Below are positions 52,192 through 63,138 of a stretch of DNA of 64,000 nucleotides, one piece after another; position 1 is the stretch's first letter, and each line of letters opens with the position of its first letter. The position numbers and the translations under genes were made by a program. The notes below the pieces were generated by a model. It was given only the letters and a program-made list of their open reading frames with translations. It was not told where the DNA came from and did no database searches. The stretch is from contig CAWFQB010000005.1 of assembly GCA_963817895.1 (NCBI GenBank), positions 544,001 through 608,000 of the forward strand. The letters run 5' to 3'. The stretch is from an uncultured Chthonomonadaceae bacterium. Its GTDB lineage: Bacteria > Armatimonadota > Chthonomonadetes > Chthonomonadales > Chthonomonadaceae.

Positions 52192-52552
52192 TTGTTTTGC
52201 GCCATGATTAATGTGATCAGGATGATTGCCATGATTCTGTAACGGCGAGTTTATCTGCTTGAACCTGATCTTTTGGACACAGGGAAGAGCAGGGAACAGG
52301 AAAACCAATCATGGTAATCATCCCAATCACATTAATCATGGTGCAATACGAGTAGATTGCGCGATTGAAAAGGAACTATATAGTCTTGACAGGAATATTA
52401 TAATTGTGTTATATAAGAGGGATCGAACTGCCTTCCTGAAACGCTGCCATCCTGCTGCAAAGGCATCTGTTAGCGCAAAGCGGCGCGCGACAAAGACACT
52501 GTTGTTTTGTGAGGGGGCGGCAGAAAAGAATGAGTATCGAAAGGATGTATTT

Positions 52553-53182
52553 GTGAACCGTTTTCATTTTTCGGCGGGTTGCGCCATGCTGGCGCTGTCC
52601 GCTGGTAGTTTGTCGGCACACGCGCAAACGTATACGGAGGCCGGGGATACCGGGCAGTTGCTCGTCTCGGCGCAAAATGTGGGTGGCCCGGTCAATCGCA
52701 TCGAAGGAACGCTTTTCAACGGCGACATTGACCTGTTCCGCGCCGACTTCGATTTCACCGGGACGCTGACCGTAAACGCGATTGCCGTTTCGGGTGGCTT
52801 GAATATGAACCTGCACAGTTTCAACAGCGCGGGCAATCCTCGCGGGGCTAATGACGACTTCGGCGGAAGTCTGAACAGCCAACTGACGCTGGCGATCACG
52901 CCGGGTACGTACTACTTCGGGGTGGGGCAAAACAATACGGAAGCCCTCGACAACACGAACACGATCATTCAGGACAACGACAACGGCACGCTGAACCCCA
53001 ACGGCGTACTGGCGGGTTGGGACGGGCCGGGAGTGGGCAGTGGCGCGTATGCCATTATCTTTTCCACGTCCACAGCGCCCGCCGCTGTTCCCGAACCCGG
53101 CAGCGTCGCGCTTTTCGTCGGTATGGGCATTACGGGAACGGTCTTCCTGCGACGCGGCAAACGCGCCCGAAAATCTGCCTGA
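52553..53182 (+). CDS. PEP-CTERM sorting domain protein (PPC-like domain)
   Basis: GTG start, signal peptide ending AHA, C-terminal VPEPGS-TM-RR. Confidence 0.88.
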   Translation: MNRFHFSAGCAMLALSAGSLSAHAQTYTEAGDTGQLLVSAQNVGGPVNRIEGTLFNGDIDLFRADFDFTGTLTVNAIAVSGGLNMNLHSFNSAGNPRGANDDFGGSLNSQLTLAITPGTYYFGVGQNNTEALDNTNTIIQDNDNGTLNPNGVLAGWDGPGVGSGAYAIIFSTSTAPAAVPEPGSVALFVGMGITGTVFLRRGKRARKSA

Positions 53183-53454: not shown

Positions 53455-54192
53455 ATGAAGGAGACTCTCTTTATGCCAATGCCGCCACTTTTCCGTATGG
53501 CTCTGCGTCTTGCCTGTCTTGGCTTCCTGCTGCCGACAACCGCGCAGGCGCAAAACTTAGTCCAGGACGGTGATTTCGAACTCGCGAACCCTGGTGTCAC
53601 GACCTTTAACACCTCCTACTTCGGGCCGACAGGGCAGGCTCCGATGTTCGACGCCTTCTGGACAGTTCCGGCAGGAACCGTCGCCATTGATACGGCGCGC
53701 GATTATGTCTATGCCGGGAACAAGAGCCTGTGGCTCAACTCCGATGATCCCATGACTTCCCCCACCAACACCCTTTCGCAGACACTTCTTACCACGCCGG
53801 GACAAAGCTACCTGCTGACGTTCTACGCCGACAGCAGCTTTACCCCCAACGCTCTCGGCAGTGGCCCGCATCCGCTGACTGTCACCTTCGACGGCAACAT
53901 CGTGAGCGGCAGCGCGATTGACGTGCCGGAAAACGGCTATCCCAACAGCGGGCCGGGTTCTAACGCAGCTTTGTTCACCTTGTATTCTTTCCTGGTCACC
54001 ACCAATTCAAGTCTGACCGACCTGACCTTTTCCGCGCAGGGAAGCGTGTTGTTCAATCCGGGCAACACCCTCGAACTCGACAACATCAGCGTCACTCCTG
54101 CCGCCGTTCCCGAACCCGGCAGCATCGCGCTTTTCGTTGGTATGGGCATTACGGGAACAGTGTTCCTGCGCCGCCACAAGAGGTCTGTCTGA
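53455..54192 (+). CDS. PEP-CTERM sorting domain protein (CBM/DUF642-like jelly roll)
   Basis: Signal peptide, NLVQDGDFE, LSQTLLTTPGQSY, LDNISV, VPEPGS-TM-RR. Confidence 0.88.
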   Translation: MKETLFMPMPPLFRMALRLACLGFLLPTTAQAQNLVQDGDFELANPGVTTFNTSYFGPTGQAPMFDAFWTVPAGTVAIDTARDYVYAGNKSLWLNSDDPMTSPTNTLSQTLLTTPGQSYLLTFYADSSFTPNALGSGPHPLTVTFDGNIVSGSAIDVPENGYPNSGPGSNAALFTLYSFLVTTNSSLTDLTFSAQGSVLFNPGNTLELDNISVTPAAVPEPGSIALFVGMGITGTVFLRRHKRSV

Positions 54193-54373: not shown

Positions 54374-54478
54374 TCATACATTGTTGGGATGAACGGCGGT
54401 AATGCGGGGATAGCGAGCAAAATCCGTGACGTTGAGCGTAAGAAGCAACGAAATATTCGAGGCGGCCAGGTACGCCAT
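54374..54478 (-). pseudogene. internally deleted PIN toxin remnant (34 aa)
   Basis: MAYLAASNI + LLTLNVTDFARYPRITAVHP resemble the two ends of a PIN toxin; TGATG coupling to the antitoxin. Confidence 0.6.
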
Positions 54479-54729
54479 CAGTCATGGTCTCCATAAATAC
54501 CGGCGCGGGTTGTGGCATCGTGAGAGAGTACGGGAAGCCCTTCAGACTCTTCTTCCAGAGTATCCAGCGTTGCTTCCCATTCTTCCTGAGACAATTTTTC
54601 CGGCGCGGGAACCGCGACCATCTGTTCAATCAAATTTTGCAGGAAATCGGCAACAGGCTTGCCCTGAGAAGCGGCGCGGGCATGTACAGCGGCTTCTACT
54701 TCGGGGCGCAGGTCTAAGGTGACAGTCAT
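54478..54729 (-). CDS. ribbon-helix-helix-like antitoxin
   Basis: MTVTLDLRPEVEA....RAASQG and LS.DA.TRAGIY tail; GAGGAG RBS. Confidence 0.72.
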   Translation of the reverse strand: MTVTLDLRPEVEAAVHARAASQGKPVADFLQNLIEQMVAVPAPEKLSQEEWEATLDTLEEESEGLPVLSHDATTRAGIYGDHD

Positions 54730-54867
54730 AGTTTTCTCCTCGTGCTTTGCCTGTAATTCAAGGTACACGGCACATTCGAGACGCTCCTGCCGTGTACAGG
54801 CTTATTATACAGTATGACCAAAACGTGGTGAAATATTTTGTCGGTTGACAGAAACAACCGCAGACGA

Positions 54868-54921
54868 AAAGCAACAGGGCAGAACCTTCTCTACATATCG
54901 AAGGTTCTGCCCTGCTGCTTT
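54868..54921. terminator. 22-bp stem hairpin directly after the defence operon
   Basis: AAAGCAACAGGGCAGAACCTTC-10 nt-GAAGGTTCTGCCCTGCTGCTTT (one mismatch). Confidence 0.75.
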
Positions 54922-55388
54922 CAAATAGTAGTGTGGTACAGACGTTCCAATTCGGTGACAATCTGCTGCGAGAGGCGGATGACTTCGGGCAGGCCGGTTG
55001 TGTCGGGGGCGGTGACGTTGGACACGATTTGAAAGTAGGGCTGCCATTGGGCGCGGAGGGTTTGTAGACGTTTTTGGACGCCGTATTCAACGCCTTCGCG
55101 GTAGGTTTCATCGAGTGAAGTGTATTGCGGCAGGGGCGGCAGAGCAAATGCAAACACTTCCAGATCGTCCAACTCTTCCACGTCTACAAGCAGACTCTCT
55201 GATAGCCGCTTGCGAAATGTGCCGTTGTGGTCCAGATGCCCGCCAAGCCGCGTCAACACGCCGCCCCGCGCATTGGTCTGCCCGACATAAACGACGTGGT
55301 TGCGTTTGGAACACAATATGTAGATGTAGGCCATACCCCGTCCGAGGCAGGTACGGCCTAACCTGAAGCGCAGTGTACCCGACAGCAT
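54921..55388 (-). CDS. GIY-YIG-like nuclease
   Basis: YIYIL...VYVGQT......TRLGGH...REGVE pattern (GIY/YIG strands, Arg, Glu). Confidence 0.65.
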   Translation of the reverse strand: MLSGTLRFRLGRTCLGRGMAYIYILCSKRNHVVYVGQTNARGGVLTRLGGHLDHNGTFRKRLSESLLVDVEELDDLEVFAFALPPLPQYTSLDETYREGVEYGVQKRLQTLRAQWQPYFQIVSNVTAPDTTGLPEVIRLSQQIVTELERLYHTTI

Positions 55389-55398
55389 GGCTCTTCAC

Positions 55399-57168
55399 CT
55401 AATCGTCATTGGGAATTTTGTCGCCGACGTCTTTCGCCACTTTAGCCAGCATTTCGGACGCTACGCGGCGATACTCCTGCAAAATGGCTTCAATGTCCTT
55501 GCGGGGATATTTCATGGTCTTCTGCACGTAAACCTCGGCGGCGGCAAGCTGCAAGAGCATCAGGTCGAACACGATGCGCAGGGCGGCGTTGTCAGTGTTG
55601 TCCTGATAGATGGTTTTGGCGAAACGGTGAATGAAGTTGATGCGGACGCAGTTTTTCTTATCAGCGTCATAGTAGGGTTCCCACAGCGCGTTATCCATGA
55701 TGTTGTGAACGGGCATGATGCGGTCACTGGTTCCGGCCTGTTCGCCAACAATGATCTTCTGTATCACTTCGGGCGGTATTTCATCCTCGGTAAAATCTAT
55801 TTCCGGCTGTTGTATTTCCAACAGCAGTTTGGCTTCAGCCTCGAAACGCTCTTCCTGCTCAACGATAATCTCTTGTTGGCGGGCCTGCTTCTCCTGAAAT
55901 GCCTCCTCTGTGTCCGGCTCACCGGGCAATTCTTCGGGAATTTCTGACTGCTGCGCAAGGAGGTTGGCGGTGCTGCCGGGATTCATGCCCGCCCGCCGTT
56001 TTATCTCTTCGCCTGCGTGTTTCCACGCTTTTTTGCTCTTGCGCTTGGCGTCAGTAGAAAAGTCGTCAAGAGCTTTGTAGGCTTCATCGGAAAGATTGAT
56101 GTGCGATTTTTTGACATCTATGTTCAGCACGTCATCCGCGCTGGAATCGATAAAAACGCGCCCGCGAAATGAGTAGAAATCGTTGTCCTGCGGGATAATG
56201 GGGCCGTTGACGCTTGGGAAGCCTTCTGCCCATGAAATCAGGCGTTTGTTACGGTAGACATAGTAGCCATAGTTACCTGCGCCAATGCGGTACAGGTCAC
56301 GTATGCGGGACTGTTCGCCGGTTCCATCGGCTTCAAACGTGGGCGGGTGCGGCAATTGGGTGACTTCCACAACAGCCCTGACGCCCCGTTCGCCGTCGAG
56401 TACCAGTTCCTGCGGTTTTTCGATCCAGCGGGTTTCGCGTCCGTCCCAAATGTTTTCGTCCAGATTGCCGTTTTTGTCGGCTTCCCCGGTAAACAGCACG
56501 TCGAAGGGAGAACACTTTTTGTCTTCGATGTCAATAATCAAGCCATCATCGCGCATGAAGTAGTAGTACACAATACCAACGCGCTGCTGAAGTTCCACAA
56601 CGGTAGAGCGGATACTGGGGTGATTTCCTTTACGAACGTCGGTGACTCGGACAATGGTTCCATGCCCCTCGACGAGATACTCGCCAATCAGAGCGTTATC
56701 TTCATCGGAGAGTTCCACGCGGTCAGCCCCGTAGACGCCGCGCTCTCGGATTTCGGGAAGGGATACTTTGTACTTATGCCATTGCCCGTTACCGTTGCTG
56801 GAAAGCAATTCGAGGGTTTCGCCCTGTGAAAAGGAAGCGGCTTTTAGGCCAAGACCGAATTTGGAGAGAGTGTTAGGCGGGTAGTTGGCATCCGTAGCCC
56901 CAAGCGTGAGCGCATTGATAATGCCTTCCTCATCCATGCCCCTGCCATTGTCAATGATGAGATAGGATTTAACATTGTTCTTCTTGGTATCAGCAACATT
57001 TTTCTCTGGAACAATTTTAACAGATATGCACTTTGCGCCAGCTACAACAGAATTGTCTATAATATCACAGATGGCTGCGTGTGGCGTATAACCAATTTTG
57101 CTAAGTCCATCGCAAATTCTACCCGCGTCCATCTTCAGACTGACAAATGCCATTCTACTTTCCTCCAC
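55399..57168 (-). CDS. MORC-like GHKL (HATPase_c) ATPase
   Basis: GYTPHAAICDIIDNS (N box), DNGRGM (G1), SKFGLGLKAAS (G2), HGTIV (G3), YVYRNKRLI and IDVKKS S5-fold motifs, charged helical C-terminus. Confidence 0.85.
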   Translation of the reverse strand: MEESRMAFVSLKMDAGRICDGLSKIGYTPHAAICDIIDNSVVAGAKCISVKIVPEKNVADTKKNNVKSYLIIDNGRGMDEEGIINALTLGATDANYPPNTLSKFGLGLKAASFSQGETLELLSSNGNGQWHKYKVSLPEIRERGVYGADRVELSDEDNALIGEYLVEGHGTIVRVTDVRKGNHPSIRSTVVELQQRVGIVYYYFMRDDGLIIDIEDKKCSPFDVLFTGEADKNGNLDENIWDGRETRWIEKPQELVLDGERGVRAVVEVTQLPHPPTFEADGTGEQSRIRDLYRIGAGNYGYYVYRNKRLISWAEGFPSVNGPIIPQDNDFYSFRGRVFIDSSADDVLNIDVKKSHINLSDEAYKALDDFSTDAKRKSKKAWKHAGEEIKRRAGMNPGSTANLLAQQSEIPEELPGEPDTEEAFQEKQARQQEIIVEQEERFEAEAKLLLEIQQPEIDFTEDEIPPEVIQKIIVGEQAGTSDRIMPVHNIMDNALWEPYYDADKKNCVRINFIHRFAKTIYQDNTDNAALRIVFDLMLLQLAAAEVYVQKTMKYPRKDIEAILQEYRRVASEMLAKVAKDVGDKIPNDD

Positions 57169-57170
57169 AG

Positions 57171-58013
57171 TTATAAATGACAGATCAAGCAGGCTTGATC
57201 GCTGTCTTCATCATCAAGGACTTTCTCGAAAATTTCGGTCAGGCGTTTGGGTTTTTTGTTGGCCTGCTCGTAGGCCATCGCCTCTTCGTGCATAGCGCGG
57301 ATTTTGGCGACCCGTTCGGGCTGTTCCAGTTCGCTCAGGCTTTCGTTTTGCGCCCATGTGTAACGCCGGACTACGCCCGTGAGCGGATCGGTTTCTTCCT
57401 TTTCAAACGTTTTGGCTTTTTCGTACAGGTCGGGATGTTCGCGTTTCAGGTTTGCCCACTCCACTTTGCGCTGAAAAAAGCAGAAGTAGCAGCCGGAACG
57501 GGTACGCCACTTATAATAGTCCGGCAGGCCCAAACTCGCGTCTTCCAGAATCTGGTACACGCCCTCTTTGTCAATGCCCGCGTCCTTGAACGGGTATACG
57601 GCCTGTATGTTTTCCTTGTGGGAAATGTAGCCGTCCCGGTTCTCATCGGCGCGGATAGCCACATACGACATAATTCGTGCGCCCGGAAACTCCGAATCAA
57701 GCCAGCGTTCAAACGGCTCGATTTTCAGTTTCGCGGTACACCAGCGCATACGCGGCGAGGGCAGGTAATTGTTATAGATTTTCAGGTAGTGGCTGAAAGG
57801 CCGATCCGGGTTCAGGCGCGTAATCGGCTTGCCCAAAAAATTTTCCAGTTTCCCTAAATAATCGTAGGTTTCCTCTAGCTCTTCGCCTGTATCGCAAAAG
57901 TAGTAGTGCATGTCGGGTACGCGGTCGCGCATATACACGGCAAGCGCGGTGCTGTCCTTACCGCCCGATATGCCCAATACGTTCACCACATTTTGCCCGG
58001 TTTGCTCAGTCAT
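57171..58013 (-). CDS. sspD: PAPS-reductase-family protein, SspD-like
   Basis: PP-loop GISGGKDS, RWCT..LK, IRADE, RSGCYFC, terminal CLIC; context with DUF4007 and ATPase. Confidence 0.78.
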   Translation of the reverse strand: MTEQTGQNVVNVLGISGGKDSTALAVYMRDRVPDMHYYFCDTGEELEETYDYLGKLENFLGKPITRLNPDRPFSHYLKIYNNYLPSPRMRWCTAKLKIEPFERWLDSEFPGARIMSYVAIRADENRDGYISHKENIQAVYPFKDAGIDKEGVYQILEDASLGLPDYYKWRTRSGCYFCFFQRKVEWANLKREHPDLYEKAKTFEKEETDPLTGVVRRYTWAQNESLSELEQPERVAKIRAMHEEAMAYEQANKKPKRLTEIFEKVLDDEDSDQACLICHL

Positions 58014-61000
58014 GGGGTTGACCTTTCAGCAGGTTTTGAACCAGTTGGCTGACGACTGCCAATCTTACCTCTTCAGGTTCGCCTCGTAATGTATATTCGA
58101 AATCATTCAGCAGTTTTCGACACAGTGAGTCTATTTTTTCGGTGTCCATTTTCTGCACAAACACGATACGCGATTCTTCTGCGCCCGTGTCGGTTGTTAC
58201 GGCAAGCCGCAGCCCCGTTTGCTCATCGCTATTCGACCTGCGCTGTCGTTCAAACTGAATCACTTCCGCATGTTGAAACGCGGAAATTAATGGTGGCAGA
58301 CGATTTACAAAGCGCTCTTCTTCTGTATCGCTCCAAACATCTGGCGGGCGCGTGGAGATTCCTCCGGCAACCAATTCCAGCCACTCTTTGCGTTTGTACG
58401 CTTCATCCCCGGCACGCACAACGAACGATTTCAAGCGCGGCTCGGTAACGTGCGACAGAATAGAAGCGGAACGGGCGCGTAACTCCTCCCAATCCTTTGT
58501 GCCGAATCCGTTTGTCAGGGCGCGTTCAATGCGCGACAACAGCGCATCGTAAGCCCCCATCACTTCGCTTAGTGATGTATTCCAGTCCATGAAGAACTGC
58601 TCTACGTTTTCCGGGTCTTCCGCCTGCGCCGTAAACGCCCTTGCGCCGAGCAAACGCGGCAGAAACGAGAACAACAATTTTTCCGGCTCTTTGCCTTCCC
58701 GCAGTAAATCGCGTACGGCTTTTGCGGACGGTTCCAGTTTGCGCGTGTGTAGCGTGTAGTCAGGCAATTTGTTTACAACGCGGTATAATTGCCTTACAAC
58801 GTTGACCAGTGTTATTTCGTCACCCGACTTCAATAATCCTCTTGCAAAACGATCTAAAACGGTTTGTCTTTCTCCCGCAATACGACAGCCTTGCAGCGTG
58901 AAATCTTCCCGGCGCTTAATCAACCGCTCGAAAGTCGCCGCGTCTAGTTCGACTACGAACCGGCCCTCTTCGTAAACAACAACCTCATTGGTATTGTACA
59001 GCAACACGGCACACAGTAGAACCGGAATAACTTGTTCTGCTAGTCCAAATGGACGTGCCTGCAAAATGTCGTACAACTGCGTTAAAGGCCGCGCTTCCAA
59101 TGCGCCCTCAAACAGAAAATCATCAATGGCTTTCCACACCTGTACCAGTGCCGGATCGTTCTCATGGTAGGGTGGGAAAATGCCCCATGTCTCGCCGTTT
59201 ACACTGCGGTGTATGCCCGTGCTTTCCAGAATGGAAACGTACATACTCATTTCCGGTGGGAACCCGTCAATGCCCAACTGTTTCTGCTCATAACGCAAAA
59301 TCATCGCTTCAATCAGAATGCGACGGGCGGCGGCAGACGTAGAGGAAATCTGACGACGGTTAATCAATTCGTTCAGCAGTTTCGGAGTTTGCGGGTAGGC
59401 TGTATCGCAGGCAGTAGAAACTAATTCCACAAGTTGCCGATTGGAGGAAAGCGGCGCGACTTCGCCGTTGTAATACCAAACGCTGCTGTCCGCCATATCC
59501 CTCTGCGGGTGCATCAGGCGGTTCCATTCCGATTTGAACGCTTCTGTTGCATCAAGTAGGCGTTCCGACACCTCGCGTTGCGCCACTCTGTCTTTTTCCA
59601 GTTCCGGTGTATCCTTCTGAACCATTTCCAGACTGCTAACAGCAACCGCCGTTTCGCGCAGGGCATCGCTTTCCACGTTGATACCAATAATTATGTCAGG
59701 ATGTTCTAAAGACAAACGTTGCGCCGTTGCTTCCGCTTCCCGAAAGTCTGCCTGATGCATAGCAAGACACAACAGCATCAGCCCGTCAGCGTCAGCATGT
59801 CCGACCCTGACTTCGGCCTCGATCTCATCAGCGCGGCAATAGCGAACGTCGAAAAAGCGCAATGTGCCTGTCAGATACGAGTGACGCCGCGCCACAACGG
59901 GCAGCATCGTTTCCAGTCGACGCGCTGTGGCAACCACATCCGTACCCTGAAAAAAGTGCGGTTTGGCGTCACGCAAGCGGGCGTCAATGTCTACGTCGCT
60001 GCCCTCATATAAACGGTAGGCTTTTTTGAAACGCCGATACGTAATCAAGGTTGCCGTTTCCAGCGCGTCAATCGCTTCCGAAATCTGCGTGGCGGTAATG
60101 CCCGGTTCGATCAGGGCAAATTCAAGCATCTTTTTCGATGGCAAAATTCGCGTCTGTTCGCCCAAAATATGCAGCAATCCGATTGTTTTCACCAGCCTGC
60201 TTTGCAGCGACGATGTGTTGCTCAGTCGGTACAACGCCTCCTGCGTTTCGCTCCAGAGTTTCGCGGTTGCATGGGAATACAGCGCGGAACCGAGCGTTGC
60301 CACCACATAATCATACAGGTGGTCTACCCGGATTTGCGGCAGGTTCTTCCCATCCAAAACATGCGCGTCCAAAAACTCCTTGAAACCAAACGGCTCATCG
60401 GACGCCAGAAACGAAAACAGCGACCGCTCATTCTGCCCGAACCGTTGAAACAGCGTCGGCATAATCAGAAACGTCAGAGGATGCATCGGGTACACCTGTC
60501 GCAGCATCTCGCCAAAATCGGCGGACGGCAGCGACTTCGGTACAATGTGCAACTGCGTACAGGTTGCAAGGTTCTGTTCAGCAACGTTTTCTAACAGATT
60601 TTTGGTTTCGGGTGTCGGCTGCGGCTGAATGGCCTGCGCCAGCAATCGCAAAATCGCTTCCGGTCCATCCCCGAACGGAATGTCCGCGAAACGCCCCTGT
60701 ACCTTATGCCACTCGTTGCGCTGCGGCCCGCTCAACCGATAAGCGTACTCCTCAAACGCCTGATGCAAAATGGTGACAAACACAATCGCGTTGTCGCCGC
60801 TGCGTGACGCGCACTCTGCCAGTTCTTGAAGTACCTGCGTGTCGCTCTGCTCCGTGTGCAGGGCGGCGTACTCCAAAAACTTGCCCATTTCATCTACCAC
60901 TACCAGCAGCCCCGCACACCCGGCAACATGGGCGCGAACATTTTTCGACGCGATTTCAAACAGGCGGACGACATCTTTAGCGCGGGGTTCCGAACTGCTG

Positions 61001-61527
61001 CCACTTCCAGACGCGCTGACGCTTGCCAACTCCTCGCGAATAGCCTGTATCACCACCTCTTTTGCATCCGCAGGCAGATAGTCCAGCGATTGAATCAAGC
61101 CGCGTACCAGAGCAAGCGCAAGCGGTTCCCGCGTCCCCGTCACCAAAACCGGCCAAAATCCCGCCTCTTTTTTGGCAAACAGCGTCGTGTTCAAAGCCGC
61201 CGACTGCGGCCGCGCTTCCCGGCGCAAATTGGCATCCCCAATCTTGCCGACCGCCAGCGTTTTCGCCGCGAACAACGCGAACGCCGATTTTCCCGTGCCA
61301 TACGCGCCCGTCAAACTGTACGCCCGCGCGTTCGGGTTGCGAATCCCCTCCGCGATCCGTTCCAGAGCCGACAGCGCGGCGGGAGTCGGCACATACCCTT
61401 GCAGCGCGTCCACGCTGTAAAAGTCGCGCTCCAAATTCACGGAACGCAGAAACCGTTGGCGCACTCCGACCAACTCTGTCAGGCGCAAACCCGGTTCTGC
61501 CTGTTTCTCAGTCAGTATAGTAGGCAT
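58006..61527 (-). CDS. sspC: large P-loop ATPase, SspC-like
   Basis: FLRSVNLERD, Walker A GAYGTGKS, Walker B VVVDEMGKFLE, EW.KVQGRF, YPMHP, QNERSLFSFL; 1173 aa. Confidence 0.78.
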   Translation of the reverse strand: MPTILTEKQAEPGLRLTELVGVRQRFLRSVNLERDFYSVDALQGYVPTPAALSALERIAEGIRNPNARAYSLTGAYGTGKSAFALFAAKTLAVGKIGDANLRREARPQSAALNTTLFAKKEAGFWPVLVTGTREPLALALVRGLIQSLDYLPADAKEVVIQAIREELASVSASGSGSSSEPRAKDVVRLFEIASKNVRAHVAGCAGLLVVVDEMGKFLEYAALHTEQSDTQVLQELAECASRSGDNAIVFVTILHQAFEEYAYRLSGPQRNEWHKVQGRFADIPFGDGPEAILRLLAQAIQPQPTPETKNLLENVAEQNLATCTQLHIVPKSLPSADFGEMLRQVYPMHPLTFLIMPTLFQRFGQNERSLFSFLASDEPFGFKEFLDAHVLDGKNLPQIRVDHLYDYVVATLGSALYSHATAKLWSETQEALYRLSNTSSLQSRLVKTIGLLHILGEQTRILPSKKMLEFALIEPGITATQISEAIDALETATLITYRRFKKAYRLYEGSDVDIDARLRDAKPHFFQGTDVVATARRLETMLPVVARRHSYLTGTLRFFDVRYCRADEIEAEVRVGHADADGLMLLCLAMHQADFREAEATAQRLSLEHPDIIIGINVESDALRETAVAVSSLEMVQKDTPELEKDRVAQREVSERLLDATEAFKSEWNRLMHPQRDMADSSVWYYNGEVAPLSSNRQLVELVSTACDTAYPQTPKLLNELINRRQISSTSAAARRILIEAMILRYEQKQLGIDGFPPEMSMYVSILESTGIHRSVNGETWGIFPPYHENDPALVQVWKAIDDFLFEGALEARPLTQLYDILQARPFGLAEQVIPVLLCAVLLYNTNEVVVYEEGRFVVELDAATFERLIKRREDFTLQGCRIAGERQTVLDRFARGLLKSGDEITLVNVVRQLYRVVNKLPDYTLHTRKLEPSAKAVRDLLREGKEPEKLLFSFLPRLLGARAFTAQAEDPENVEQFFMDWNTSLSEVMGAYDALLSRIERALTNGFGTKDWEELRARSASILSHVTEPRLKSFVVRAGDEAYKRKEWLELVAGGISTRPPDVWSDTEEERFVNRLPPLISAFQHAEVIQFERQRRSNSDEQTGLRLAVTTDTGAEESRIVFVQKMDTEKIDSLCRKLLNDFEYTLRGEPEEVRLAVVSQLVQNLLKGQPHD

Positions 61528-62440
61528 TCAAAACCTCTTCTTTGCCAATGTCGCCATGCCGCGCCACCTGCCGGATCATCACCGTATCGCTGAACGTCAA
61601 GCGCCCCTGTGTCAATTCCGCCAGCGTATCCAGATACCCCAACACCGTATCATCATCCAATCGGAAAATGCGCCCCGGACTCCCCTCGCCGTACACGATC
61701 TCGCGCAGGCTCAAGGTTTCCTGATTGGAATGTCGCTCCTCCCAACAGTGCAGCAGCGCGTACACGAAAATCGCCGGGGGCAAACTCTCCTTCGGCTCCG
61801 TGTTGAAACGGTAGCGATCCCCCACGCTCAACAGCAAGCCCAGGTTCGTCAGCGGACAATCCAGCGACTCTTCCGCCGTTGACGCAGGCCCGCGCCGCCC
61901 GGTCACATACGTTCGCAAAAAGCAGTTCACATCGTTTTTCAGCGTAGTATCGGAAACCTGCCCCCACGTCCGTTCCGCCGCCACCCGCTTCAAACCCTCC
62001 ATCAAACTCTCGCGGGTAAACTCCGGTTCGCGCATCAGATTGAACGCCCAGTACCACGTCGTCGCCCGCCGCGCATTGGTAGCCAGATGCCAGTGCAGCA
62101 GCCAGAGCGTCCCCTCATCTTCCAGATACTTGTCGTACCCCGGTTCCAGAAACAACGACTTTCCCAACTCGGACGGCAGCAATGGCTTCGTTCTGTTGGA
62201 AGGTAACGCCCCCTCTTCCAGAACTTGCGTCGCCAGACACCAGTGCCGAATCGAGCGCACCATGTTTTTGCCCACGCCAAGCGTCACTATCGCATCATCG
62301 CGCCCGAAAATTTCCGGCTGCCGGGTAATGCCGTCCAATCCCTTTTTCAGCCACGCATAGCGAAAAGGAAACGTCTCGTGACCCGAAAACGACGGATGCA
62401 GGGAAAGCGAAGGCTGGGCCGTCAAACCCATCGAAGACAT
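61508..62440 (-). CDS. sspB: DUF4007 family protein, SspB-like
   Basis: FSGHETFPFRYAWLKKG, LGVGKNMVRSIRHW, DKYLED.GTLWLLHW, SPGRIFRL. Confidence 0.85.
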   Translation of the reverse strand: MSSMGLTAQPSLSLHPSFSGHETFPFRYAWLKKGLDGITRQPEIFGRDDAIVTLGVGKNMVRSIRHWCLATQVLEEGALPSNRTKPLLPSELGKSLFLEPGYDKYLEDEGTLWLLHWHLATNARRATTWYWAFNLMREPEFTRESLMEGLKRVAAERTWGQVSDTTLKNDVNCFLRTYVTGRRGPASTAEESLDCPLTNLGLLLSVGDRYRFNTEPKESLPPAIFVYALLHCWEERHSNQETLSLREIVYGEGSPGRIFRLDDDTVLGYLDTLAELTQGRLTFSDTVMIRQVARHGDIGKEEVLNAYYTD

Positions 62441-62530: not shown

Positions 62531-62560
62531 ATTATGACGTATAACCCGGATTTCCGTCAA
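62531..62560 (-). promoter_or_regulatory. sigma70-type promoter of the ssp-like operon
   Basis: Minus strand TTGACG-18-CATAAT about 90 nt upstream of the DUF4007 gene. Confidence 0.55.
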
Positions 62561-62612
62561 GCCAATTTGCGTAGAAATGCCAGCCCCGCGCATCTAAAAG
62601 CCTGTCTCAATA

Positions 62613-62664
62613 GGTTCCCCTTCTCCCAGGCTTTTTTGGGAGAAGGGGTTAGGGGTTGAGGGCT
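62613..62664. repeat. CCCTTCTCCC...GGGAGAAGGGG palindromic REP-like element
   Basis: Related copies at ~11850-11891, 23252-23301, 23508-23551, 34481-34520. Confidence 0.8.
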
Positions 62665-63138
62665 AATTGGAAAAGGCTGCTAAATTGAACACTCTGTCCC
62701 CGGCTTCTACCCTCATCTGTCATAAGCCACCAAAGTTCAAAATTTTTGCAAAACTTTCGCGAAAACTTCTTGAGGATACTTCTAAAAAAGTGGACGAATG
62801 TTAATATACGGGGTCTGCCAAATAGAATACTGTCCCCAAGTAACAAGGGAAGGAGGTGCAAAAAGATGCCAATTCACATCCGACAGCCTTAACCATTCGG
62901 AGGTCACGACGCCTCTTCTTACAACCTGACACAACGAGGCCGAGTGCTGGAAGCGCTGCATTGCCAATATTTCGACGACGCCTCTACATATTTCTCTCCC
63001 CATTTAGAGACATTTGCCCTGTACCGTTTCCTGTTTTCGCGTCCCTGCAAGCCGTATCGGGTATAATCAATCCCGAACCGTTGGCGCGAGGTGGCAATTC
63101 TGCCGCGTTCCGCCCCAACCACTTTGCCGCGAAAGAAG

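Follow-up and report, generated by a model that had tools for sequence, protein, structure and literature searches.

Several described systems resemble the subject of this work, a five-gene phosphorothioate (PT) operon within a 64,000-nucleotide (nt) stretch (the window, to which positions refer) of contig CAWFQB010000005.1 (GCA_963817895.1, 544,001-608,000) from an uncultured Chthonomonadaceae bacterium. SspABCD-SspE (PMC13251355, PMC8092258) uses the same SspBCD writer, and its effector joins a nucleoside triphosphatase (NTPase) to a nuclease. SspABCD-SspFGH likewise has SspBCD, the desulfurase IscS in trans and an adjacent multigene effector; in the available text of its description, IscS can stand in for SspA, and sspBCD with IscS is enough for PT (PMC8092258). 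Bacteriophage exclusion (BREX) type 4 contains homologues of DUF4007, of the BrxC/SspC-like ATPase and of the PAPS reductase (PMC12914056, PMC12839542). MORC ATPases, defined by the motif GhXhhpXXRhl in the S5 domain, are known from restriction-modification operons with SWI2/SNF2+HNH, C5 methylase and Vsr (Iyer et al. 2008, PMC2292703), and Rakesh et al. 2024 (PMC10853773) noted GIY-YIG (URI) nuclease genes at Dnd-locus edges, where some are encoded on the other strand. The operon reported here consists of five minus-strand open reading frames (ORFs) in series, sspB, sspC, sspD, a MORC gene and a GIY-YIG gene, of which the last two are a real partner module of PT systems, intact, conserved and apparently without a name.

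The operon departs from each of these relatives. Whereas SspE is a single DUF262+HNH polypeptide, the MORC and GIY-YIG proteins are separate here, and no match to SspE was found among them. PADLOC returned no SspF, SspG or SspH match on the five proteins, and SspFGH stands beside the pair at three other loci (L004, L007 and L020), which marks the two as distinct modules. The models of SspC and SspD far outscore those of BrxC and BrxP. The operons of Iyer et al. share the signature motif, belong to a sister clade, show full-length homology and have a nuclease gene directly after MORC, but their mark is 5-methylcytosine and their nuclease is HNH, in contrast to PT, GIY-YIG and an operon without a helicase. 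The nucleases at Dnd edges, matched in the present set by L058, L140, L146 and L148, are treated in the accessible text as stand-alone backups with no Ssp link (PMC10853773). MzaB also has an N-terminal HATPase_c_3 domain. Membership in the SspE system was rejected given the lack of a full-length SspE in the operon or genome, membership in SspFGH given no match on the five proteins and only a partial SspH genome-wide, membership in BREX type 4 given no PglZ in the genome and no brxL among the five genes, and membership in Mza given an MzaB score of 81.9 bits against a cut-off of 850 with no other Mza match on the five proteins. The source genome is 81% complete, which limits all genome-wide absences reported here.

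That sub-threshold MzaB match is the best that PADLOC 2.0 and NCBIfam offer, and neither names the pair, which an earlier note on this DNA had not recognised as a described system. A literature search, with most subscription journals outside its reach, found no paper on it. In the accessible text of PMC2292703, the terms PAPS, Dnd, URI, GIY and phosphorothioate do not occur. The main text of PMC10853773 does not mention MORC or GHKL (its supplement may bear on novelty), and neither GHKL nor GIY-YIG is mentioned in PMC12839542 outside its supplements or in the main text of PMC12914056. For the largest cluster, a table of the last source records, without comment, that 221 of its 1,056 members have HATPase_c_3 in the vicinity of SspD, at a median distance of 4 genes; this count probably mixes several GHKL families.

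Occurrence of the MORC and GIY-YIG genes beside PT systems

The MORC and GIY-YIG genes are inherited together as a single cassette, which is retained only in the company of a PT system. A single-protein query of genome contigs gave no matches, but an alignment query did, and 148 MORC-anchored loci (L numbers) were fetched, their ORFs called and clustered, and the cluster representatives annotated together with 56 of 91 unlabelled long ORFs. Six loci fell into a distinct HNH-linked clade and were excluded, so that 142 remained. A GIY-YIG gene lies directly 3' of MORC at 122 of the 128 loci with at least 700 nt downstream; of the remaining six, five have a truncated MORC ORF, and in the sixth MORC is frameshifted but the nuclease is present. 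Spacing between the two genes falls within -44 to +33 nt for 58 of the 60 dereplicated loci. The nuclease is present at 52 of the 54 loci with flanks of at least 8 kb on either side, each time with PT genes of Ssp, Dnd or BREX-4 type within 10 kb (52/52, or 30/30 after dereplication at 70% identity). The writer genes are inside the locus in 51 of the 52, and in L007 sspBCD lies just past the locus edge. In the two wide loci without PT genes, MORC is truncated and the nuclease missing. Chance clustering in defence islands was rejected on this 52/52 linkage against a low base rate of SspD, which occurs in 25 genomes of a 301-genome sample of the phylum. The co-occurrence of sspBCD with HATPase_c_3 and GIY-YIG orthologues, which the earlier note had proposed to look for, is thus widespread.

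Searches from other starting points gave the same picture. The phylum sample contains MORC in three genomes (this genome and two of one family), each time directly 3' of sspD. Of the eight matches from a nuclease-anchored search of 1,344 genomes, three were the search centres themselves, two had been found before, two were new loci that have sspC-sspD and MORC upstream, and one was an N-terminally truncated fragment without MORC; all seven full-length matches follow a MORC. Neither SspD nor DndC was matched in any of the four genomes in which MORC is truncated and the nuclease missing (0/4). Eight genomes with an intact pair and no complete writer in the locus were checked: five had SspD or DndC elsewhere, L020 has a divergent sspBCD just outside the locus, and L059 and L050 are considered below. 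The distribution of the pair is patchy and mobile. The 58 GTDB loci span 11 named phyla, and many Flavobacteriaceae copies sit inside a conjugative element. Viral contigs gave six distant GHKL matches, limited to the N-terminal 100 to 155 residues and none with ssp or GIY genes, and PLSDB plasmids gave no match at E 1e-20.

Writer proteins and the MORC-GIY-YIG pair

The first three genes are SspB, SspC and SspD with their conserved residues intact. SspB matches DUF4007 in Pfam (E 2.4e-91) and SspB in PADLOC (E 8.4e-98). SspC scores 1024 bits with the PADLOC SspC model (E 0) against 614 with BrxC, its only Pfam match being weak (AAA_16, 0.006), and SspD reaches 3.9e-117 with its own model against 1.9e-10 for BrxP and 3e-5 for DndC, with PAPS_reduct in Pfam at 4e-8. 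In comparison with 29 to 34 homologues, highly conserved positions are largely retained: SspB has all 25 of those conserved at 90% or more in its 29 homologues. SspC retains 59 of 61, including Walker A (G74-S81) and Walker B (D212-E213), and SspD 66 of 68, including the S16-S21 loop and C92, C175, C178, C275 and C278. No cysteine desulfurase gene was found within the operon; a desulfurase is present in cis at 34 of 52 related loci, and this genome holds several full-length Aminotran_5 (class-V aminotransferase) genes as candidates for supplying one in trans. The bacterium presumably writes PT.

Sequence and predicted structure identify the fourth gene product as a true MORC ATPase. The only Pfam family seen is HATPase_c_3 (E 7e-22), and both the GHKL ATP-binding motifs and the S5 domain are present. 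The ORF has 589 codons from a GTG start, and the ATG start gives the 584-amino-acid (aa) database protein P0001. The MORC signature is at residue 301 and occurs in all 66 dereplicated rows of the clade and all 4 of its sister clade, but in none of 8 rows of a paralogue (paraMORC). Conserved sites include N39, D73-G75-G77, the K103-K109 loop and D351-V352-K354. The predicted structure (predicted local distance difference test, pLDDT, 85.9) is closest to MORC3, MORC4, SMCHD1 and MORC2, with Z of 21 to 24 over residues 7 to 385, and Hsp90, TopoVI-B and MutL rank below these. The homologue search gave 1,962 matches among 8,000 candidates, the best 120 of which are 47 to 100% identical over nearly the full length. 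No family could be assigned to the C-terminal ~100 residues, and in the ESM Atlas residues 400 to 584 fall with unnamed clusters at 0.94 to 0.95, the nearest named one at 0.88 providing no usable lead.

By its alignment and model, the fifth gene product is a GIY-YIG nuclease of minimal kind whose conserved core is intact. Its match to PF01541 (E 2e-5) is 25.2 bits, above the cut-off of 22.6, and all 86 rows of the alignment (86/86), which have a mean identity of ~35 to 39%, share Y23, Y34, G36, R47, H51 and E101. The model of residues 20 to 155 (pLDDT 96.9) has as its best fold the I-TevI catalytic domain (Z 6.0, root mean square deviation 3.1, 87 residues), and I-TevI, T4 EndoII and UvrC are among its first four matches, with modest Z values; a PDB sequence search with the nuclease profile gave nothing significant. 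GIY-YIG nucleases have a conserved C-terminal asparagine. The alignment shows no conserved asparagine column, and S123 is kept in 85 of 86 rows. At E <= 1e-10 the family has 154 representatives. Its members are mostly short, with at most 200 aa in 146 of the best 150, and three distant ones have a HEPN-like tail. The roles of individual GIY-YIG residues, including those of the catalytic arginine and glutamate, are presumed here from the family and from PMC12923530. For all five proteins, the identities agree with the earlier note, which had seen an SspBCD core (DUF4007, ATPase and PAPS reductase), a GHKL/MORC ATPase and a GIY-YIG-like protein.

Association with different writers and ancestry of the pair

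The writers adjoining the pair include SspBCD at 47 of 54 wide loci, DndCDE at L058, L060, L061, L140, L143, L146 and L148, and BrxP at L052 and L080. The pair is therefore a partner of Ssp, as the earlier note had proposed, but not an Ssp-specific one. Distance correlations over 27 loci, computed on non-independent pairs, give a rho of 0.83 between MORC and GIY-YIG and of 0.75 to 0.83 among the Ssp proteins, against 0.33 to 0.52 across the two modules, which indicates at the sequence level an ancestry of MORC and nuclease separate from that of the writer. A quick tree groups the PT-linked MORCs in a single clade (SH-like approximate likelihood ratio test, 99), with a sister clade of 4 rows (100). 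Members of the sister clade align with the PT-linked MORCs over their full length, C-terminal domain included, and adjoin HNH, C5 methylase and Vsr genes, with SNF2 at 5 of 6 loci. All five proteins of the operon have their closest named relatives in Capsulimonadaceae, phylum Armatimonadota; the operon is absent from two of two congeners, and no flanking direct repeats or empty site marking an insertion were found around it.

Other uncommon arrangements were observed at these loci. A 1248-aa DndC-DndD fusion adjoins the pair at L061:13322-17068. A second PT-linked GHKL module consists of an SF2 helicase (~550 aa), a paraMORC (~610 aa, without the MORC motif) and a PLD nuclease (~300 aa). It stands alone directly after sspD at 3 of 24 loci (L187, L195 and L204), and occurs with the MORC-GIY-YIG pair at L005, L031, L037, L040, L090, L105, L109, L119 and L137; an orphan paraMORC ATPase lies 3' of the pair at L001, L042, L050 and L073. 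A protein of ~830 aa with a weak HATPase_c_3 match and no PADLOC match is found at L011, L012, L017, L018, L021-L030, L075, L104 and L235, in the last directly before MORC. A methyltransferase-domain protein of 480 to 860 aa, also without a PADLOC match, occupies the edges of the PT loci L004, L016, L040, L058, L060, L063, L090, L127 and L140.

Other candidate effectors

The earlier note had placed the pair in the effector slot of the operon, a position that would be lost if sspE or sspFGH elsewhere in the genome were the true effector. No full-length SspE, SspH, PglZ, DndC or DndH was found in this genome (SspF and SspG were not searched genome-wide). Full-length SspE is a DUF262+HNH protein of about 770 aa; four DUF262 proteins match the SspE models only over the first ~100 to 140 positions and score higher with other models. 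For SspH, there is only a 293-aa frame matching the C-terminal part, and PF08665 (PglZ) has no match in the genome. A search for SspE in five related genomes gave no matches, but no positive control responded either. No further effector from the list accompanies the pair at 16 of the 30 dereplicated wide loci, whereas 14 contain another candidate (PbeA-like helicase 12, SspFGH 1, PglZ 1, SspE 0). The interpretation in the earlier note is thus supported, with the refinement that the pair is sometimes the only effector candidate and sometimes an extra layer, and does not fill the effector slot alone at every locus; its PT sensing and anti-phage activity are putative.

About 12 of the 24 sspD loci of the phylum sample (L190-L194, L196-L198, L202, L205, L207 and L208) continue differently: another SspB-like gene comes next, and with it an ORF of ~170 aa, a large ATPase and additional ORFs of large size; these are possibly Ssp-writer/BREX hybrids, with PglZ confirmed in L192 only. 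At L201:3558-8219 and L203:4824-9441, protein-kinase domains are fused to an SspF-like domain downstream of sspBCD.

Proposed function and alternatives

An anti-invader function coupled to PT, whatever its logic, is probable. Its most plausible form, held tentatively, is restriction of PT-poor invader DNA, with the PT mark protecting self. This form is favoured on account of the sister clade, in which the same MORC goes together with a methyl mark and a nuclease. PT synthesis, MORC clamping, nuclease recruitment and the target are inferred. A housekeeping desulfurase of the IscS type would pass sulfur to SspD, by a route established for homologues, and SspB, SspC and SspD would write single-strand PT on host DNA. 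The MORC protein and the nuclease, shown by genomics to be inherited as one cassette and retained only with a PT system, would act downstream of this mark. By analogy with MORC and MutL biology, a MORC dimer may close on DNA as an ATP-gated clamp and load or license the nuclease, which itself is without a targeting domain. PT would denote self, and PT-poor invader DNA would be cut, so that phage or plasmid replication stops, in analogy with the sister clade of MORC, HNH and methylase and with SspFGH. In a more specific and rather doubtful version, the pair would be a writer-independent PT effector, in which the MORC clamp gauges the backbone sulfur of any motif and gates the GIY-YIG nuclease.

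Several observations weigh against restriction of PT-poor DNA. No PT-reader domain was recognised in the pair, and the C-terminal MORC domain is common to the methylase-linked sister clade. Four positions before the asparagine, motif I has Asp in place of Glu in 55 of the 66 rows, which leaves the rate of the ATPase uncertain. Kinship among the loci is high (28 of the 58 are from Bacteroidota), the distance correlations come without a permutation test, and the MORC tree drew long-branch warnings. Other effectors accompany the pair in the 14 loci mentioned above and, beyond those 30 loci, in L093 and L121 (SspE), L004 and L020 (SspFGH) and L048 (DndFGH). Finally, L059 (an sspC fragment) and L050 (sspD missing) have an intact pair and no SspD match in the genome, which is difficult to reconcile with the proposal because a simple cutter of unmarked DNA should be lethal there, although both are metagenome-assembled genomes of unknown completeness.

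Some of these points would be accommodated by an effector activated by PT or guarding the PT machinery, which would be silent without PT, like SspE, or would fire when a phage blocks that machinery, acting as an indiscriminate backup or suicide device. Such a logic is close behind restriction of PT-poor DNA, though unlikely in itself. An intact pair beside a broken writer fits an effector that is harmless without PT, and coexistence with primary effectors fits a backup. Partnership with Ssp, Dnd and BrxP writers of different motifs fits sensing of sulfur or machinery rather than sequence. SspE provides a precedent for a PT-licensed NTPase-nuclease (PMC13251355), and URI nucleases at Dnd-locus edges have been proposed as backup suicide effectors (PMC10853773). 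On the other side, the pair is the only listed effector at 16 of 30 loci, the lack of a recognised PT reader tells equally here, and the writer-less cases are only two, both from metagenome-assembled genomes. The type IV-like alternative, a PT-dependent enzyme cutting foreign DNA with PT in a non-host motif, could draw on GIY-YIG domains that work in modification-dependent enzymes such as CMoRE (PMC12923530). It is very improbable, given that the nuclease has no sensor domain, its relatives being as short as described above, and that such an enzyme would be expected also in hosts without PT, of which the 52 loci include none.

Two further explanations would remove the pair from direct defence or from PT. 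A housekeeping role, in which a MutL/MutH- or Vsr-like repair or maturation activity nicks damaged or half-made PT sites, would suit a relative of MutL joined to the incision fold of UvrC and a cassette that accompanies three unrelated writers, all of which make PT. PT is also labile under oxidants. This role is improbable: the cassette is found at only 3 of 25 sspD loci in the phylum sample, it is patchy and mobile, the sister clade has Vsr as a separate gene beside MORC and HNH, and sspBCD with IscS already suffices for PT (PMC8092258). A defence system of its own, with PT genes merely as island neighbours, would agree with the separate ancestry of the pair and with the other defence genes close by at many loci. 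The linkage to PT genes, set against the base rate of SspD, and the loss of the pair along with the writer in four of four decayed cases make this highly unlikely.

If the writer-independent version proves true, the cassette would found a new class among PT effectors and be the first that Ssp, Dnd and BREX-4 writers have in common. It would also serve as a bacterial model, made of two proteins, for a MORC that acts on an epigenetic mark against foreign DNA. Many PT-writing loci have no known restriction partner, and this clonable cassette of ~740 aa is a candidate for part of them. Its exchange among three unrelated PT writers would allow a direct test of the reading of a backbone mark that is sparse and varies in motif, and a MORC nearest to the mammalian MORC2/3/4 structures would provide a simple system for the response of MORC clamps to an epigenetic mark.

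Operon layout and neighboring features

The number, orientation and order of the genes given in the earlier note match the ORF coordinates (Table 1), as do the junctions between them, which in order are a 20-bp overlap, an 8-bp overlap, a 2-nt gap and a 10-nt gap. The strong hairpin that it had seen after the last gene was also recovered, with 22-nt arms at 54868-54889 and 54900-54921 and a folding energy of -50 kcal/mol (z -9.0), which none of 200 shuffles equalled. A terminator scan did not list this hairpin because it has a 10-nt loop and is followed by only four U's. The single upstream promoter of the note fared less well: the site is present, but six promoter-like sites were found against 5.9 expected by chance, which places this site alone at chance level.

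Table 1. Features of the PT operon in window coordinates
Feature	Position	Strand	Evidence
Promoter candidate, sigma-70-like, 5' of sspB	62531..62560	-	10/12 consensus matches; weak
SspB (DUF4007), 310 aa; DNA-binding/nicking subunit of PT writer	61508..62440	-	Pfam, PADLOC, conservation
SspC P-loop ATPase, 1173 aa	58006..61527	-	PADLOC, conserved Walker A/B
SspD, PAPS-reductase-family sulfur-transfer subunit, 280 aa	57171..58013	-	PADLOC, conserved loop and cysteines
MORC-family GHKL+S5 ATPase, 584-589 aa, long helices and conserved C-terminal domain	55399..57168	-	Pfam, MORC signature, predicted fold
GIY-YIG (URI) nuclease, stand-alone, 155 aa, without added recognition domain	54921..55388	-	Pfam, invariant residues, predicted fold
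Hairpin, 22-bp, starting at GIY-YIG stop codon; probable terminator	54868..54921	-	Folding energy vs shuffles

Rfam gave no matches across the window. Upstream of the operon, a dispersed element of ~160 nt (62840-63000, plus strand) has ~46 copies in the genome and many in two congeners; it contains a strong ribosome-binding site followed by a conserved micro-ORF of 8 to 9 codons in 25 of 25 copies shown. A second repeat of ~80 nt (62600-62680) has ~135 copies in the genome. On the other side, a 96-aa ORF (54478-54768, minus strand) has a weak, antitoxin-like ribbon-helix-helix match (E 0.028), and 3' of it lies, judged by eye, only what may be the remnant of a toxin gene. Two tandem secreted-looking proteins (52259-53182 and 53455-54192, plus strand) share an 83-nt 3' repeat that presumably encodes a PEP-CTERM-like tail.

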